A DNA stretch of 64,000 bases from Lophium mytilinum (Eukaryota): contig MU004192.1 in the NCBI GenBank assembly GCA_010093605.1, forward strand, positions 256,882-320,881, in the 5' to 3' direction. Below the pieces are notes generated by a model. It worked only from the letters and a program-made list of their open reading frames with translations, made no database searches and had not been told where the DNA came from. Each line of letters begins with the position of its first letter. Position 1 is the stretch's first letter. Shown here piece after piece: positions 27,986-37,805 of this stretch. The position numbers and the translations under genes are program-made.

Positions 27986-29718
27986 CTACCCTAGATTCGT
28001 ATAGGACTGTCCACAAGGGCCCGCCATGTTCCCCGTGCTTCTGAACGCTGGACTAGTATCCGGCCCATAGCTCAGTCCATTGAACGTGCCAACGGGGCAT
28101 GAGTCCGTGACGCCCACTTGCGACCCTGCGGCGGTGTTCGTAGCTACACTAACTACACATCCTTCATAGCTATAGAAGTATGCTGAAACGCAGTTCGCTA
28201 CTCCGAAGAAGCAGGTATTGCAGCAAGCCTGCACAGAATGCCCTTGTGGTGTGGCAAGGCCATACAACTGGTTTGCGATTCTGAGATTGGTCGAGGTGGT
28301 GGCATCTCCATACGTGGGTCCTTGATAGTTGGTGATTGGCGTTGCGCAGGCTGGAAGGGGTATTTGTCAGTACATTTATGTATCGGCGCGAAGAGGCAGC
28401 TTACGGTAGACAGTTGTGGTCGTAGTTGGGCTGGTATACACGGTGTCTGTCGCTGTCGTCGTAACTTCTGTTGTTGTGGGAAGTAGACTCAAGCATTCAC
28501 AGGATGCTGTTATGTCAGGCGTCGACGTTGGTGTTGGGCTGGGTGACGTGCTGCTGCTTTCTGGGGCAGTCGTAGTACTTAGGATAGTTGAACTACTTCC
28601 AGAGCTCTCTGATGTTGTGGTGATGCTCTCGAAAGCTGTGCTGGAGCTCTCGGTAGTAGATGGTGTGTTTTCAGGAGTTAATGAAGTGGTGTCGACAGTA
28701 GAAGAGGAGCTCTCGACAACGTTGCTTGAGCTTGAGCTGGAACTCTCCGAAGCAGAAGAGGAGCTTTCAAGAGTAGAGGTCACACTGGATTCCGGGGTGC
28801 TTGAAGAGCTGCTTGACTGCGCAACAACCGAGATGGTCGTAGAGGATGACGCGGATGATGTAGCTGAAGAAGATGAACTAGATGCGGAGATTGATGCTGA
28901 TAAAGACAAAGTTGACGAAACCACGGTAGATGAGATCACAGGAGTTGAGACCGGGGTAGACGAAGCCACAGTATGTGAAACCAGGGAATTTGGGGCAATT
29001 GTGGACTTAGAACTGCTCGCGTATGGTTTTTCTGTAGATTTAGTGCATGAGGTGGTACCATGATGCGACGTAAACGATGATTTAGAAGGGCTTTGAGAGC
29101 TCGACTTCTGCGTGGAAAACGTGCTCTTGCTTGTATGACGAGAAGACGGGGTGTGTATAGGTGTCGAAACCGCCTTCTTGAGCGTGCAGCTCGACTCTCG
29201 CGTGGAAAATGTACTCTTGCTTGTATGGTGAGAAGAAGGGGTGTGAATAGGTGTTGGAGCCGCCTTCTTGAGCGTACAGCTTGTACTTGATTTCTTGATT
29301 CCAGATGATTTATGCGTGCTGATGTATTTCTTGTACGACGGCGCTTTCGTGCTCTTACTCTCGGTGCATATGGAGGTGTGAGAAGGAACCGCTCTGCCAG
29401 CTATAGTCGGTGGGGGGTTCCCTGGCAGAAACACATAGCTGGTGCTCGTAACAGCGCCTGCAGAGGGCGAGGTGACGGTTGTTGTACTTTGCCGTAGGTT
29501 AGGTAATTATACAATAAGATTCGGGGTCATGGGGGGTACCTCGTCGTCGTAGTTGTGGTGTCAGAGACGCTGAGCAGGGTTGAACAATACTGAACGGGGT
29601 CTCCAATAGAGAACGGGGAAAAATCACAGAAGCTTTGTCGTCGCTGTCGAGTGATCGGGGATGTCAAAGCGAATGAGCCAAAAAGGACAGTGGCTGCAAT
29701 GAAAGTTAGGGGAACCAT
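27986..29718 (-). CDS. Secreted Ser/Thr-rich (mucin-like) protein with Cys-rich C-terminal domain
   Basis: Exons 29718-29540, 29486-28405, 28350-27986; signal peptide MVPLTFIAATVLFGSFALT, RQRR processing-like site, long S/T stalk, C-terminal ACCNTCFFGVANC...GC...CP...PCG. Confidence 0.8.
29098..29281. repeat. 90-bp (30-aa) tandem duplication inside the S/T-rich gene
   Basis: AGCTCGAC...GCCTTCTTGAGCGT at 29098 and 29188; encodes SCTLKKA(A/V)xTPIHTPSSxHTSKSTFST twice. Confidence 0.9.
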
Positions 29719-30907
29719 AACGAATGTGGTGGTAAAGCTACCGAAAGAGTGACGGAGAAGCGAGTGACGAAAAGAACGAGACGCTGTCAACAAGAATCGC
29801 AAACGATCAAAAGTAGGAGAGTGGGAAGAACGCGACTATTAGTTATTCTGTGATAAAGGGTTACGCTAAATAGGGTACCTAGTGATCTACCGCCGCCATA
29901 GCGTCAAGAAGCATCTCGACCACATCACTGGCACAGGCCACACAATAGTGCAACCTCATCAAATTCTAGTGTACCCCCAATCGAATACAAGAATGCAGCG
30001 GTGACTGCTACGTTTTCGGGCAAAGAGAGATTGTTGTGAGGCAAACCCAATTGCTTGATCGCGACCTTGTTCTATAAAGAAAACGAACAACGTACGCAGG
30101 CTTGTAGATGCGATCACTGTACCCAGAGAGTGCCTTGGGTCAAAAGCTTCTTTTTTCAAGCATCGGCGCCATGGTGATCCTTTTTGCTGAGCCTACACCA
30201 TTTTTGACATCTGTCAGTCCACTTTGGGACGAACCCCTGACTAGTCATGCAAGTCAATAAGCCTAGAACGCGGCTCAGCTACGCCACTGCGCCTCCAGAT
30301 CAAGCCCGATCTATACTCATAAATTCGTAGGAGATGCATACGGCCTCTTCTCAATCCCGGTGGTTTTAGGGGCTTAATGCGTCACTCGTATAGAGTCGTC
30401 GTATCGTTAGGGCTGGATTTCCTAGAGTGCGATCTGCTGAAAGCCACTCATTAGGCGCTATTATTCTTGCTAACTTCACCAAAAGAAAGCGGCACAATCG
30501 CTACCAGATTATCGAGGTGCTTCACGGAAGCTTTCCCACCAATTTGCTAAAAACGCCATGTCGCATTACTCTTCAAAGAACACCTCCATCCTGGAATCAT
30601 GGTGGAGGGTTAGAGTTTTTGGGAGGCTTTCTTTCTAAAGCCTTAGGTATATAGCGGAAGGAACCACTGACAGCGATCTAGCATAAGAGATGGCTGCGAT
30701 AGATACGAGATCACGCCGACCAAACGTAGATTAGCCTTAAGCTATGTTCTGTTACAGTAAGTTTACTCAAGAATCGGGGCCCCAAGATTGGAATCTAGCA
30801 AGAGCATGAGCAGCTCACTTCTCTGAACGGGAAAGGAAATTGGTTGGGCGCACACCGGGATATCATACTGTCTGTTATGAATTGGCGGAACTCGAAGGTA
30901 TTACATG

Positions 30908-32311
30908 CTACTCTCCGTCTCCTCCATCTGCTCCCGAACCTGCATCTGCCGGATCCGCCTGAGGGTCAGTATTCTTCCCAAACATACCGCCAAAGAAATT
31001 CGAAATCGTCTCACCACTCCCAAACGGGCTGGGGATAGGCACCCCCAACAACACCGCCGTCGTAACCGGAAAGATAATCTTCAGCGCCGCAAAGAGATAT
31101 TTGCTCGTGCCCTTGGCCCTCCTCCCCTTCTTCGAGCCCTCAGCCCCAGCACCACCATGGCCGCCTCCACCACCCCCATCCTCAGCCAGCACGGGCGACT
31201 GCGCCAGCTCCGCAATCTTCCGCTCAAGCAACTCCCTCTCCTCGAGCCTGATTTTCCCCTCGTTAGCTCGGACGAGCGCGACGGCCTGATCGAAGCTGAG
31301 TTCTCGCACCTTGGCCTGCCGCTGCATCTCGAGTTGCATTTCGCGGATGCGCGCCTCGAAGTCGTTTTCCATACGGCGCTTTTCCGCGCGGCGGTCGTAG
31401 CGCAGCTGCTCCTGCTGGCGGTGCACCTTGGAGAGCTCTTTGTCGAGCTTGCGCTGCTGCTCGTCGAGGATCTGCTGCATTTCCTCGTCGTGGTCTTTGA
31501 GCGCTTCTTGCATCTCCTGCTGGATCTTGGAGAGCTCTTCGGCGTGCTTTTCCGCCAGGCGCACGAGCTCTTCGTTGACGGTTTGGCCGGCGGCCGTGTC
31601 GATGAGCGATTTGTCTTCTTCGACGAGCTCGCGCTGGATCTTTAAGGTTACGGGGGCTTTTTGGAGGAGGGTGGAGACGATGTCTAGGGCGGATCTGCGT
31701 TCAGTGAGTCGTTTCATCGTCGAGCCTCGCGATATCATGCTGCCCCAGAAGTCTGGGGTAGTGCGGAGCTCCTCTTCTCTTTTCTCAGCCACATCCTGGT
31801 TCACTTCGCCCCAGAATGTTGTCGCGAGTATTACATTCTTGAGAGGTTCATTACCACAAAGTTGTCGAAACATCTTGAGATTTCGCAAGGCTGAGCCTTC
31901 CATGCGGACATTGACGAGACTGTGGAGATAGATAACGCCATTAAGTCGGGTATCTCCTTCGTAGGACTGTTTCAGCCATTTTGCAATGTCCTGGAGGACT
32001 TCGGTCTCGCTCTTGTTGGTGTCGTTAAAGCCCGGGGTATCGACCAAGTTTATGTTGTATCCATTGTAGTGGAAAGAGTAGCCCATTATCTCGGAAGTAC
32101 CTGCAGGCATTAGACACCTTGAGCGCAGCATCTTAGGGCTCGTATACTTACAGGATTGGAGATCATGGCCCACTTCAATATTCTGATTACCGCTGACAAG
32201 CTTGATAAAGCTGCTTTTTCCCGACCCAGTCACCCCCATCACGGCAATGAATGCCCATGGAGCGCCATCTACGGGCTCCTGGCTGAAGAATTGATCTGCT
32301 GGTAGTATCAT
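30908..32311 (-). CDS. AIG1/GIMAP-like P-loop GTPase with long coiled coil and hydrophobic C-terminal segment
   Basis: G1 IAVMGVTGSGKSS, G2 SCT (after removing 51-nt intron 32151-32101), G3 LVDTPGFND, LNGVIYLH, ATTFW; coiled coil; Gly linker; KYLFAALKIIFPVTTAVLLGVPIP; ATG at 32311. Confidence 0.88.
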   Translation of the reverse strand: MILPADQFFSQEPVDGAPWAFIAVMGVTGSGKSSFIKLVSGNQNIEVGHDLQSCKYTSPKMLRSRCLMPAGTSEIMGYSFHYNGYNINLVDTPGFNDTNKSETEVLQDIAKWLKQSYEGDTRLNGVIYLHSLVNVRMEGSALRNLKMFRQLCGNEPLKNVILATTFWGEVNQDVAEKREEELRTTPDFWGSMISRGSTMKRLTERRSALDIVSTLLQKAPVTLKIQRELVEEDKSLIDTAAGQTVNEELVRLAEKHAEELSKIQQEMQEALKDHDEEMQQILDEQQRKLDKELSKVHRQQEQLRYDRRAEKRRMENDFEARIREMQLEMQRQAKVRELSFDQAVALVRANEGKIRLEERELLERKIAELAQSPVLAEDGGGGGGHGGAGAEGSKKGRRAKGTSKYLFAALKIIFPVTTAVLLGVPIPSPFGSGETISNFFGGMFGKNTDPQADPADAGSGADGGDGE

Positions 32312-32805: not shown

Positions 32806-34629
32806 CTAATGTTTCCACCCAGGCGGTTCGCCCATCCAACAAATAGCCTTCTTGAGCACGCTGCGAACCTCGTAATCGCCGTCGTCGTTTCCACGACTGA
32901 CCACAGCAGGATGCGTGACAACCAAGATGGGGAGTCCATCTAATCGCGCCGGGTTGTCGTTCAAATGCTTGTTATGAAGCTGATGAGCTTCAAGCAGCGG
33001 GTGGTTGTGTTTGAACACCTCTGGCAAATCTCCCTTGAACCTGCATTCAAGATCCCGCTTTTGTACCCATAGAGAGAACGATATCTGTGCTGCCCGTTTG
33101 GCAAACGAATGGAGGAGCTTCTCCGCAGCATCGCACCGAGGGCTCGTCATCAAGGGCTCAATGCCCGTCTGAAGGAACTCATCGCATACTACGATAGCGG
33201 CATTGTCTCGCGCTTCTTCGGTCCTCTTGTTTGTCTCCGCAGCGGCCTGTGGAGCCTTCTGACTTGAATTCGACGCAGGAGCGAGCAATCTCAATGTTTG
33301 AGCCCGCCATGCAAATGCCTCTTTCTTATCGACTGCCCATTCATTAGCATTCTGCCACCTGCTCAGTTGAAAGCTAACGGGGCATACCTTCTCGAAGCTC
33401 GTCGTAAAGCGTACTTAGCTCCGCAGCAATACTAGCACTTCTGGCATCATCGCCCTTGGCAGGCTTCACGTTAGAGAGCCTCTCGCCAATGAAGAAGAAC
33501 GGCTCCTCAAAGATTTCTGTATAGAGCTTGTGAAGAAGCCGAGCCTGCAAGAGCATCCACGATCTATCGTCTCCGACTCGAGGTGGAACTTTGCCGTGTT
33601 CAAGTCTAACCACGCAATCCAGGCAGCCCATCAAATTTGCTCTTTCATCTGGGGTCAACGCGACTCTAGACAGCAATGGAACTGCATAGGTCTTTGCCCA
33701 AGCCTTGATATCGAAGTCCAGACTCTTCAACTTACGACTAATGTCCTCGTTGGACTCGGGCATCCACTCCGCAGAGTCAATTTGACGAAATGCCCTCTCC
33801 TGCACTCTTCGAAACTTCTCTGCTTGTTGCTCCTGCTGGTCGGCCATTTGATTCATTTCCGCGCGAGCGAGCTCGAATTCGCGCTTCCAAGTTTGGGCTT
33901 CTTTGTTATATGTCACAGCTTGACTCTTCCATGCTTGAGCATCCTTGGACGTTTCATTCAGGCGTCGCTTCAATTCTTTGATGGTCGTCTCGTAATCGGG
34001 CTTGATCATTCGTCTCGGATCGTACCAGCTCGTCCCTTGGTCATGTGACGCTGCTGCCATTGCCGCTATTTGGGCTTCTCTATCAATATCGCTCGTCAAC
34101 TTTGAGGCATTTCCCGAATTTGCCAATTCGGACTTTGACAGTGGTCTTGGCGATGACATAGAGGCATTTGTTGTACTGGAAGTTCTGGTAGGCACACTAG
34201 AGGCGACATTTTGGGAAGGGGCCGGCTTAGACACCTTTCCCGAAGTCGGCCTTGACGAGCTTATAGATTTGAATTGCACATTGCCGTCTATAGATGCTGA
34301 GTTGGTCCGAGATACGGTTTTGATTGATTCCTTGGGTGCAACCTAAAATTGCATGAGCGGTAGTAGGCATGGAAAACTTGGCAATCTTACTTTGTGAATC
34401 TCATCATTTTCGAGTGCTTCCTCTACCTTTGAATTCGGCGTTTCCTGGTAAATTATGTTAGCCGCCCAATTCATTCTAATACTGATATAGAAAGAGCTGT
34501 ATATATGATCGGACCCTTGGCAGTCTCCGTCTCCGGTGAAAGTGAAGTACTGAACGAGAATTGAAGCTTGTCCATAGCATGAGACATGTCACCAACCTCT
34601 TCTCCATTTTCTAACTTTTCGCCGGACAT
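32806..34629 (-). CDS. Coiled-coil protein with GrpE/MIEAP-like C-terminal domain, multi-exon (5' end approximate)
   Basis: Exons include 34444-34391, 34342-33388, 33332-32806; S/T/P-rich N-terminus, coiled coil, AFAWRAQTLRLL, C-terminal FKHNHPLLEAH...ILVVTHPAVVSRG...VLKKAICWMG. First exon junction not resolved. Confidence 0.75.
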
Positions 34630-35568: not shown

Positions 35569-37805
35569 ATGGCAGACCTGTATGAGAACCCGTGGGAAAG
35601 GCGAACGACCGTTCGAAAAGCGGCGCCGGGGACATGGAATAATGGTTCGCTGCTTTCTGCGCTGTCGTTGACAGACAGCAGCCACCGAATAATCATCGGA
35701 GTCGACTATGGCACAACTTACACAGGTAGGGATCTCAGAGCTCAACACTAGCAGTGTGCGCTCCATCCTCTAACACTTCTAAGGCATTTCCTATGTCGAC
35801 TCCTCGAAAACTAGCATCAACGATATCCACGTCATTAGAACCTATCCGGGCCCAGGTGGTGCAGACGCCGTCTGGAAGACGCCGTCGCGAATTGCCTACC
35901 GGAGCGAAAATCAAGAGTCCAGCACCAATCAATTCGGGTACCAAGTTACTCCAAAGATGACCAGCTATAGCTGGACCAAGTTGCTGCTCGATTCCAGGAC
36001 CCCAGCAACGGCTCATGATGATCCCGATCTGCAGAAATCAGAAGGCACAGGCATGCTCAGACTTCCCCAAGGCAAAACAGCGACAGAGGTAGCTGCCGAT
36101 TATCTTCGAGAGGTATACCGATGGACAGTCACAGAACTTGAGAAGCGTATCTCTCCAGAGGTGGTTCGCGAGACCCCGTTCGAATTCTGGTTCACGGTAC
36201 CTGCCATCTGGAGTGATGCCGCAAAAGCTTCGACTCAAGCCGCCGCACGCGCCGCAGGCTTTGCCTCGAGACCAGGAGACAAAATCTTTCTAATACCGGA
36301 ACCTGAGGCAGCTGGCGTATCCGTCTTGAAGGGTTTGACTCAAGAAGGACTATCAAACCAGGCAAAGCCAGGTGACGGCCTCTTGATATGCGATTGCGGT
36401 GGAGGCACTGTGGATATAACCACCTACAAGATTACCAGCGTCGCACCAAAATTAGCTTTCGAGGAACTAGTCGAGGGAGCCGGTGGCAAGTGTGGTTCCA
36501 CATATATCGATCGTCAGTTCCACCAATGGATGTCGCGAAAGTTTGGTGCTAGTTTCGATAAATTGAGGTTCGAGAAGAAAGGCCCAGGCAGTCGATTCAT
36601 GAAGGATTTCGAGGGCCACAAGAAGGATTTTGGATCTTCTGACGACCTCGACCAAGTATATGAGATCAACCTGGTGATGCCTGGCGTAAGCTATTCAATC
36701 GTATACGATGACGATGAATGTGTAGTCAAACTTACTGGGTACGAGATCATGCTCAACTTCTATCGAAAGTTTGTTAACAAGGGTCTAGGCGAGATATGCT
36801 CAGCTTTTTCGAACCAGTGGTGGACATGATCATCAGTCTTCTGGAGCAACAAATGCGACTAGCAAACCAGGCTGCAGGGACCTGCACGATTAATGTCGGT
36901 CTTCGCCTTGATGAACTGAGAAGCATCTTGCTGACATGACTTGTAGCGAGTTATCCTAGTCGGCGGTTTTGGAGATTCTCCTTTTCTCAACACCAAGGTT
37001 CGGGCATGGTGTAACAGGCAAGGAAGCATACGGCTCTTATGTCCAGAGCATCCGTAAGTTATTTTCACACTCTAAATTGGCCCGCCTTACTAAGCCCAAA
37101 TAGGCAAGCAGCCATTGTTCGAGGCGCTGCATTGCGTGGTCTTCTAGACATCGCACCGATTAGGAAGCGATGCCGTCGTCACTACGGTGTCGCATATAGC
37201 GCTACGTTTCGAGAAGGTGTCGATCCTGAGACTGACGTGAAGTACGATTCGTGGGATGGGCGAAAGCAATGCAACTCGAGAATGGATTGGCAAGTCAAAA
37301 AGGTTGGTCGAAATTCTGCAGAAGAAACACAATTACTCACAAGAGCCCTAGGGACAAGTCATCGACGAAAACACCCATATTTCCACAAGCGTACGGAGAA
37401 GTTACACAGCAGGCGATTCATTAATTCGGACTAAGACATTGTATTCCAGTTCATTTGAGAATCCGCCAGAGAGGAAGACGGACCCTGGTACGTCCAGTTT
37501 TGCTTGGCCTTTGAAAGAACAATGCTAATAGCAGCTTAGGCGTAGAAGTGGTTGGAACGATCCGGCATGTCATGCAACAGTCGCACTTGGCGAAGTTCGA
37601 ATCGAGTTACAAGAACGGAAAGTTGAGGTACAGACTCTGTTATGATAGAGAAGTAATACTAGGATCGAAGGAAGGGACATTACAGTTCAGGGTGACGTGT
37701 GACGGGGAAGAGCTCGGAACCGCGTCTATCGAGTATGCGAAGGATGAAGTCGCTCCAGGGGGAGGGTCACCCGCCTCTGCAGCGTCAGCCATGCATTATG
37801 TGTGA
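35569..37805 (+). CDS. Atypical Hsp70 (HSPA12-like actin-fold ATPase), multi-exon
   Basis: Phosphate-1 IIIGVDYGTTYTG, FTVPAIWSD, IPEPEAA, phosphate-2 LICDCGGGTVD, GGKCGSTYID, adenosine ILVGGFGDSPFL, AIVRGAALRG; no canonical lid or EEVD. Confidence 0.92.

Follow-up and report, generated by a model that had tools for sequence, protein, structure and literature searches.

GrpE-type nucleotide exchange factors serve the Hsp70 chaperones of bacteria, mitochondria and plastids, whereas the Hsp70s of the eukaryotic cytosol use other factors. Two further proteins bear on the present locus, namely Mieap (SPATA18), a p53-induced tumour-suppressor protein, and COST1, a regulator of the plant endoplasmic reticulum and of autophagy; how each of the two works is a matter of debate. 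In this work we analysed a stretch of 64,000 nucleotides from the fungus Lophium mytilinum (assembly GCA_010093605.1, contig MU004192.1, positions 256,882 to 320,881; hereafter the window), which contains a four-exon gene on the minus strand (34629-32806) for a "hypothetical protein" of 522 residues. We consider there to be an even chance that this protein is a dedicated GrpE-like co-chaperone of the atypical, HSPA12-like Hsp70 whose gene is transcribed divergently from it.

In the eukaryotic cytosol non-GrpE exchange factors are the known rule (compare the review PMC4753570), and all exchange factors are described as binding the ADP-bound nucleotide-binding domain and rotating its subdomain IIB (PMC10825016). 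In the GrpE-DnaK structure 1DKG, DnaK residues 28-33, 51-61 and 255-272 contact GrpE's beta-bundle, and loop 131-134 contacts its coiled coil (PMC10825016). Mieap is described as a protein containing an intrinsically disordered region and forming condensates (PMC10845071). The plant DUF641 protein COST1 is reported to be a dimer, to assemble into a heterotetramer with the membrane GTPase RHD3 and to stimulate the activity of this GTPase; its C-terminal domain was modelled beside the GTPase domain, and the authors state that counterparts may exist outside plants and call for a search for them (PMC13189119).

An initial annotation of positions 32806-33332 had recognised, in what it called a coiled-coil protein, an ending similar to those of GrpE and Mieap. 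Translation of the window and splicing against the deposited protein P0001 ("hypothetical protein BU16DRAFT_540904 [Lophium mytilinum]") returned this segment as the final exon of the gene. Read on the minus strand in the frame starting from 33330, it yielded 174 residues, 100% identical to P0001 over 174 residues, and the four strings on which the annotation had been based (AAQISFSLWVQ, VFKHNHPLLEAH, ILVVTHPAVVSRG and RSVLKKAICWMG) were all found in this translation. The exon lengths sum to 33+54+955+527 = 1569 nucleotides, corresponding to 522 codons and the stop, every intron is bounded by GT..AG, and the spliced product of 522 residues is identical letter for letter to P0001. Reading through intron 3 introduced stop codons, while its removal restored P0001. 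The annotated protein P0002 of Mytilinidion resinicola carries 16 additional residues (RCSSCTRLILLMQFQI) exactly at the position of Lophium intron 2 (window 34343-34390), which look like a retained intron in the Mytilinidion gene model.

A profile of five close homologues was then searched against 1.84 billion representative sequences and retrieved a large family, whose representatives number 877, 477 and 83 at thresholds of E≤1e-3, E≤1e-10 and E≤1e-30 respectively. P0001 scored 932 bits against the family profile in a full-domain match (profile positions ~205-516), and the conserved domain spans about residues 205-516; it therefore starts some 150 residues ahead of the exon to which the initial annotation was confined. 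The consensus of the 131-sequence alignment A2 reads AAxLSxxLWTQ ... F ... AHxLH ... LDGxxIxxVxHPAV ... G..DG.DY....VWxKAxVW, with L421, L435, P489 and G495 conserved at 90% or more, while R207, Q210, E211, A213, F214, W222, M223, P224, N227 and W244 are invariant in alignment A1. Since they are conserved across so large a family, the motifs that had been quoted for the Lophium exon go beyond chance.

The named members are hypothetical proteins of Ascomycota, and the ESM Atlas clusters scoring 0.91-0.96 are likewise labelled "hypothetical protein" and come from Ascomycota and Basidiomycota. Pfam returned no family at its own cut-off for this protein, and the fungal family has no Pfam model. 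A word-indexed homologue search with A1 gave only four matches, being swamped by low-complexity words, and PDB sequence searches with the exon and with a profile of the 30-sequence C-terminal alignment A3 yielded nothing beyond endoplasmin and de novo proteins, all with E≥0.5. Among the 131 aligned members, 29 are C-terminal-only pieces of about 170 residues; three of these (P0011, P0045 and P0076, with the cluster mates P0154, P0157 and P0161) fall into 90% clusters together with longer proteins of 340-440 residues. Gene models have probably often divided or shortened the gene close to its conserved last intron.

The fold was examined with AlphaFold2. A run with only five sequences gave a mean predicted local distance difference test (pLDDT) value of 41 and was unusable, while the model built with A2, used hereafter, reached a mean pLDDT of 79.6, with 314 residues at 90 or above. 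In this model a disordered segment (1-145) is followed by a single 70-residue helix (146-216), a helical domain (227-436) and C-terminal strands assigned by DSSP at 441-445, 461-463, 485-488, 490-494, 504-508 and 510-513; residues 465-471 form a short helix. By the limits of the model, exon 3 encodes the remainder of the disordered N-terminus together with the long helix and half of the helical domain, namely its first half. The predicted succession of a flexible N-terminus, a long helix, further helices and a small C-terminal beta head is of the GrpE type, as the initial annotation had anticipated, and the quoted motifs do follow the helical segments, the helices reaching residue 436 and the strands coming afterwards.

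The absence of a mitochondrial presequence, also part of that annotation, agrees with the acidic N-terminus (MSGEKLENGEEE...), in which none is evident; this is a reading of the sequence, no predictor having been run. A mitochondrial location was set aside on this ground, and the 522-residue protein, with its disordered acidic N-terminus, looks cytosolic.

The gene found 939 bp away from that of the family protein, in divergent orientation, encodes an atypical Hsp70. Its main exon (exon 2, 35786-36736) shares 98% identity with P0162 from Mytilinidion resinicola. The source databases give the name heat shock 70 kDa protein 12A/12B to homologues with about 50-56% identity, most of which carry PF00012; the window piece alone scored 19.4 bits against the PF00012 cut-off of 20.6. 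To evaluate the pairing, a survey was restricted to species in which a family member and an Hsp70-like protein both carry the species name, the latter among the best 120 of 261 matches, and contigs of identical size were taken as a proxy for one contig. The two genes lay on identically sized contigs in 11 of the 12 testable species, which we take to be several Dothideomycetes and Eurotiomycetes, plus Vezdaea. Consecutive locus tags were found in Bathelium mastoideum (M1822_008372/008371), Penicillium canariense (N7482_002189/002188) and Vezdaea aestivalis (M1814_004280/004279), the tags were two apart in P. longicatenatum, and in P. salamii and Penicilliopsis zonata the pair shares small contigs of 20.5 kb and 61 kb respectively. 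The linkage was undecidable in Trichophyton interdigitale, and six more named species were not represented among the best 120 of the 261 Hsp70-like matches and so fell outside the 12. Two family paralogues and two HSPA12-like paralogues of Rhizodiscina lignyota (P0015, P0018, P0174 and P0176) occur on one 3.32-Mb scaffold, a possible sign that the two genes are duplicated together.

The possible association of the two proteins was investigated by complex prediction, using P0162, the Mytilinidion orthologue of the neighbour, and residues 205-522 of P0001 as a 1:1 pair and without alignments. The prediction passed, with scores of 0.73/0.73/0.72 against 0.00 for the best of three controls; of 78 solved complexes 51 attained the pass mark, as did 2 of 108 mismatched pairs, and for eukaryotes the corresponding figures were 39 of 65 among novel solved pairs and 2 of 126 among unrelated ones. 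At least 79% of contacts recurred between the runs, and the partner's pLDDT was at least 82. On the family side the predicted interface comprises residues 206-243, at the base of the long helix and in the next helix, together with 367, 465-472, 496-498 and 505-507. On the Hsp70 side, alignment with E. coli DnaK placed the interface at DnaK positions 20-34, 134-139, 257-277 and 357-363. Three of the four published GrpE-contact patches of DnaK coincide with the predicted interface, while 51-61 has no clear match, so that the modelled docking surface on the Hsp70-like ATPase lies near the GrpE contacts of DnaK. The complex model supports binding and does not show it. Taken with the conserved pairing, it makes the partnership between the family protein and the neighbouring atypical Hsp70 probable and well supported in silico. 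That the protein is dedicated to its neighbour, as originally put forward, agrees with the conserved gene pair, the passing complex and the mapping of the interface to the GrpE patches; that this neighbour is an atypical HSPA12-like protein had been overlooked.

The resemblance of the C-terminus to GrpE was assessed by profile-profile comparison. A3 was aligned by hhalign with 31 GrpE sequences, from E. coli and 30 proteobacterial genomes, resulting in a score of 22.9 (P 0.011, probability only 3.8%) over 140 collinear columns within the last ~170 residues. In this register F454..H464 falls on GrpE FDPxxH154 and VLKKAVVW on LLRPAMV, and bigger slices of A2 returned the same register with weaker scores. 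The controls were run on a column-trimmed GrpE alignment, where the real score is 22.6: the reversed alignment gave 11.5, column shuffles 11.9+-1.8 (real score reached by 0 of 40) and shuffles of 15-column blocks 15.9+-2.6 (reached by 1 of 40). The interface segment 465-472 of the predicted complex is the segment that hhalign puts on GrpE 155-160. As for structure, the ESM Atlas model of the C-terminal fragment P0011 (pLDDT 0.75) retrieved three fungal clusters at template modelling (TM) scores of 0.64-0.67 and then a "putative Co-chaperone GrpE", the sole named row, with TM 0.35/0.31 over 83 aligned residues (query 49-161, the last helix and the beta head). GrpE was also among the VIA results for the AlphaFold2 model. 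The GrpE-like ending originally proposed finds weak though recurrent support in the hhalign register (FxxxxxxEAH and VLKKAxxW on FDPxxHxA and LRPAxV) and in the single named structural neighbour, but receives no signal from Pfam GrpE or from a GrpE hidden Markov model (HMM), and we lean slightly towards regarding the C-terminal head as GrpE-like. Homology is not established, and the resemblance may reflect common descent from GrpE or mere likeness.

By analogy with the GrpE/DnaK system, the base of the long helix and the C-terminal head would dock on the nucleotide-binding domain of the Hsp70-like ATPase, making contact through its IA/IB loop and its IIB helix. Subdomain IIB would thereby be held open, leading to faster ADP release, and the family protein may dimerise through its long helix. 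Such nucleotide-exchange activity is proposed tentatively, at less than even chances. The eukaryotic cytosolic exchange factors BAG, HspBP1/Fes1 and Hsp110 do the job here suggested by analogy for the family protein, but none of them turned up in its sequence or fold searches.

Several observations weigh against a GrpE-like co-chaperone. No PF01025 match was found in the exon-4 protein (E≤1), in five full-length members (E≤10), in 84 members (E≤0.1) or in the 30 C-terminal sequences (E≤10), and our own GrpE HMM, run with filters off on the last 190 residues of 131 members, scored them about as their reversals (median -2.8 vs -2.9, one-sided P 0.15). The hhalign probability is low, the Atlas TM of 0.35 is below the bar of that tool, and coiled coils took up the results of the wide VIA search. 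Foldseek of the AlphaFold2 model against the PDB gave no match at E≤1e-3, the best E of 0.07 belonging to globins and designed helical proteins and having no meaning. The family protein differs from GrpE in having about 130 residues more, which form an additional helical domain that separates the long helix from the GrpE-like part, in the short helix 465-471 where hhalign places GrpE 155-160, after the FDPxxH motif, in its long disordered acidic N-terminus and in a partner that is an atypical HSPA12-like ATPase, apparently cytosolic. The complex was predicted with the Hsp70 of an orthologue, under the conditions given above, and its pass may stem from likeness to solved GrpE-DnaK complexes. 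The family interface residues show no higher conservation than the remainder of the domain (one-sided P 0.06), and 4 of them are among the 40 most conserved positions, close to the expected number. Finally, identical contig size is a proxy only, and on scaffolds of megabase size it is no proof of adjacency.

The features of the locus are collected in Table 1. The spacer between the two start codons may act as a shared bidirectional promoter of the family gene and the Hsp70-like gene.

Table 1. Positions of the family gene, its parts and its neighbours in the window.
Feature	Position	Strand	Description
GTPase gene	30908..32311	-	Open reading frame (ORF), 467 residues; P-loop GVTGSGKSS, coiled coil, Gly-rich stretch, hydrophobic C-terminal segment
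Exon 4	32806..33332	-	Residues 348-522 and stop; helices 350-364, 375-401, 415-436 and C-terminal beta head
C-terminal beta head	32836..33054	-	Residues 441-513; six short strands and one short helix (DSSP of the AlphaFold2 model)
Beta-head motifs	within 32836..33054	-	F454, EAHxLH 462-467, LDG 478-480, HPAV 488-491, G495, VLKKAICW 506-513
Intron 3	33333..33387	-	55 nucleotides, phase 1, GT..AG, CTAAT branch-like site
Exon 3	33388..34342	-	Residues 30-347 and first base of codon 348
Helix end and first helix of helical domain	33691..33814	-	Residues 206-246; conserved RxxQxxAF...WMP...W; largest predicted Hsp70-interface patch
Long helix	33782-33994	-	Residues 146-216, within exon 3; limits from the AlphaFold2 model
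Exon 2	34391..34444	-	Residues 12-29; acceptor AG 34446-34445 after CTAAC branch-like site; donor GTAAGA from 34390
Exon 1	34597..34629	-	Residues 1-11; ATG 34629-34627; six-residue P0001 matches to the translated window; donor GT at 34596
Spacer between divergent start codons	34630..35568	.	939 bp; from the two gene models
HSPA12-like atypical Hsp70, "actin-like ATPase domain-containing protein"	35569..37805	+	About seven exons; splice sites read by eye

On the other side of the family gene, directly downstream, lies a gene for a putative GTPase, which matched Pfam MMR_HSR1 at 25.4 bits (cut-off 21.9) and, more weakly, AIG1, Dynamin_N and Septin. A search of metagenome loci with a single protein (P0031) as query retrieved contig L113 (identical locus in L114), encoding a family member with only 32-38% identity to P0001. 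On one side of it an Hsp70-like gene (46% identity) is placed head-to-head, and a GTPase sharing 61% identity with the window ORF 30908-32311 follows directly downstream in L113/L114, the order and orientation of the three genes in L113 being those of the window. The flanks of this 13-kb contig (1-2085 and 8200-13009) had nothing in common with the 64-kb window by tblastx at E≤1e-5. As only the three genes are common to both, they form a conserved three-gene cluster and not a case of general synteny, and they travel together in differing surroundings. The linkage of the GTPase is based on the window and one other locus (L113/L114), the sole distant locus with readable flanks. The initial annotation of the neighbourhood had missed this downstream member of the cluster, and the module probably includes the membrane-type GTPase as a third partner. 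Since the tblastn match to the metagenome GTPase splits at about residues 71-81, either the window gene or the metagenome gene may contain an intron at that point, and the window ORF may run through one.

Elsewhere in the window, the GC skew in 2-kb bins was +0.215 at 1-2000 and +0.217 at 28001-30000, compared with about -0.11 to +0.10 in the other bins, and the ORF at 28512-29063 encodes a repetitive Val/Glu/Leu/Asp-rich product.

The Mieap-like ending suggested at the outset was evaluated by Atlas features and with Pfam. By language-model features, the nearest named Atlas clusters in two separate queries were GIL1_IRKI_C (0.80, 0.77 and 0.81) and MIEAP (0.78 and 0.79), scores that, being below 0.9, are leads only. 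One cluster carries both GIL1_IRKI_C and DUF641, and rows with MIEAP were commonest in Mollusca. Both the HSPA12 and the GIMAP/AIG1 genes are greatly expanded in molluscs. The only Pfam match on exon 4 was MIEAP (PF16026), at E 0.2 and 12.1 bits, with residues 10-102 on profile positions 59-152 of 195; the family member P0074 reached 15.7 bits at profile positions 57-167 of 195, in register with the window exon. Both matches are below the 27-bit gathering score and represent one of the 30 C-terminal sequences and one of the 84 members, and unrelated families reached similar E-values. PF24994 (GIL1_IRKI_C) gave no match in any family sequence scanned with Pfam (exon, full-length proteins, 84 members and 30 C-terminal sequences). 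The Mieap-like ending thus stands as a feature-based lead, while its Pfam matches fall short of the cut-off.

Mieap is the nearest named animal family by features and shares with the fungal protein a disordered region, a coiled coil and a structured C-terminus, whereas only two family sequences match its profile in all. The proteins COST1, GIL1 and IRKI (DUF641, PF04859, and PF24994) are the closest named clusters of all by features. COST1 works on a membrane GTPase, and the fungal family gene has a conserved membrane-type GTPase gene next door; the plant partner RHD3, however, is atlastin-like while the fungal neighbour is MMR_HSR1/AIG1-like, and no Hsp70 partner is mentioned for COST1 in the available part of the report (PMC13189119).

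Since these Atlas links to GIL1_IRKI_C and DUF641 coincide with a conserved GTPase gene next door, the family protein may also, or instead, act on the GTPase. It could be a dimeric scaffold of the COST1/Mieap type, binding and stimulating the downstream GTPase as its main client, with the Hsp70-like ATPase as an accessory or regulator and no nucleotide exchange involved. This appears rather unlikely to us, although the GTPase gene is directly downstream at the sole distant locus with readable flanks, the two clusters nearest by features are GIL1_IRKI_C and MIEAP, one of them with DUF641 as well, the COST1 dimer is reported to bind and stimulate RHD3 (PMC13189119), and the two sub-threshold MIEAP matches fall on the same part of the profile. 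The Atlas scores are leads only, the MIEAP matches are rare and far below the cut-off, PF24994 is without any match, the window GTPase is not of the atlastin/RHD3 type, its linkage comprises the window and one other locus, and the passing complex with the Hsp70-like protein would be left unexplained. Action as a scaffold for the GTPase and as a co-chaperone of the Hsp70 are compatible and not mutually exclusive.

The same complex could be formed by a protein that binds the Hsp70-like ATPase without being GrpE-like in descent or action, such as an adaptor, a client-recruiting factor or an inhibitor, with a helix-plus-small-sheet shape that converged on that of GrpE. Every measure of GrpE similarity being sub-threshold, the presence of the extra helical domain and the location of much of the predicted interface in 206-243, outside the GrpE-aligned part, are in agreement with this possibility; we still judge it unlikely, as three different methods, namely profile-profile comparison, Atlas structure search with a separate model and VIA with the AlphaFold2 model, each yield GrpE and no other named family, and the Hsp70-side interface coincides with the GrpE-contact regions of DnaK. 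It is, in turn, highly improbable that the resemblances and the neighbourhood are functionally meaningless and that an unrelated coiled-coil protein sits by chance beside the Hsp70-like gene. HSPA12-like paralogues are many in fungi (261 matches at E≤1e-3), so that some adjacency by chance is possible, and 7 of 44 blindly drawn neighbouring genes passed the complex test. The pair is nevertheless kept in 11 of 12 testable species and at the metagenome locus that has only the three cluster genes in common with the window, and the complex scored 0.73 against 0.00 for the controls.

A wider proposal is that the fungal family, Mieap/SPATA18 and GIL1/IRKI/COST1 belong to one eukaryote-wide superfamily of coiled-coil proteins, in which a head derived from GrpE would dock on the nucleotide-binding domains of partner NTPases and tune their nucleotide cycle, the fungal cluster being an ancestral-looking, genetically linked form. 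We regard this as doubtful. If true, the family protein would be the first dedicated exchange factor for atypical HSPA12-type Hsp70s, and Mieap and COST1 would be predicted to use the same docking mode.

Our literature search, outside which lay subscription journals and supplements, returned no co-chaperone of HSPA12-type Hsp70s, no description of this fungal family, no paper joining HSPA12 and Mieap, none linking Mieap/SPATA18/GIL1/IRKI with GrpE and nothing on GrpE interface mutants; no Hsp70 partnership or GrpE likeness was reported for Mieap in the literature found. The one paper naming Mieap and GrpE is unrelated as judged from its title and the beginning of its abstract. The coral and snail papers that name GIMAP with HSPA12 or the mitochondria-eating protein do so in a reference-list entry and a table row only, and were not used as evidence. 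The partnership of a GrpE-like protein with an atypical fungal Hsp70 is thus probably previously undescribed.

If an HSPA12-like ATPase and a GrpE-like protein are indeed encoded by a conserved pair of divergently transcribed genes, this atypical branch of the Hsp70s would gain a testable partner. If the protein is indeed a GrpE-like co-chaperone, a role would be provided for a fungal family of hundreds of "hypothetical proteins". Should the link with Mieap and COST1/GIL1 hold, docking of the head on a nucleotide-binding domain would offer a concrete hypothesis on the structural level for both.

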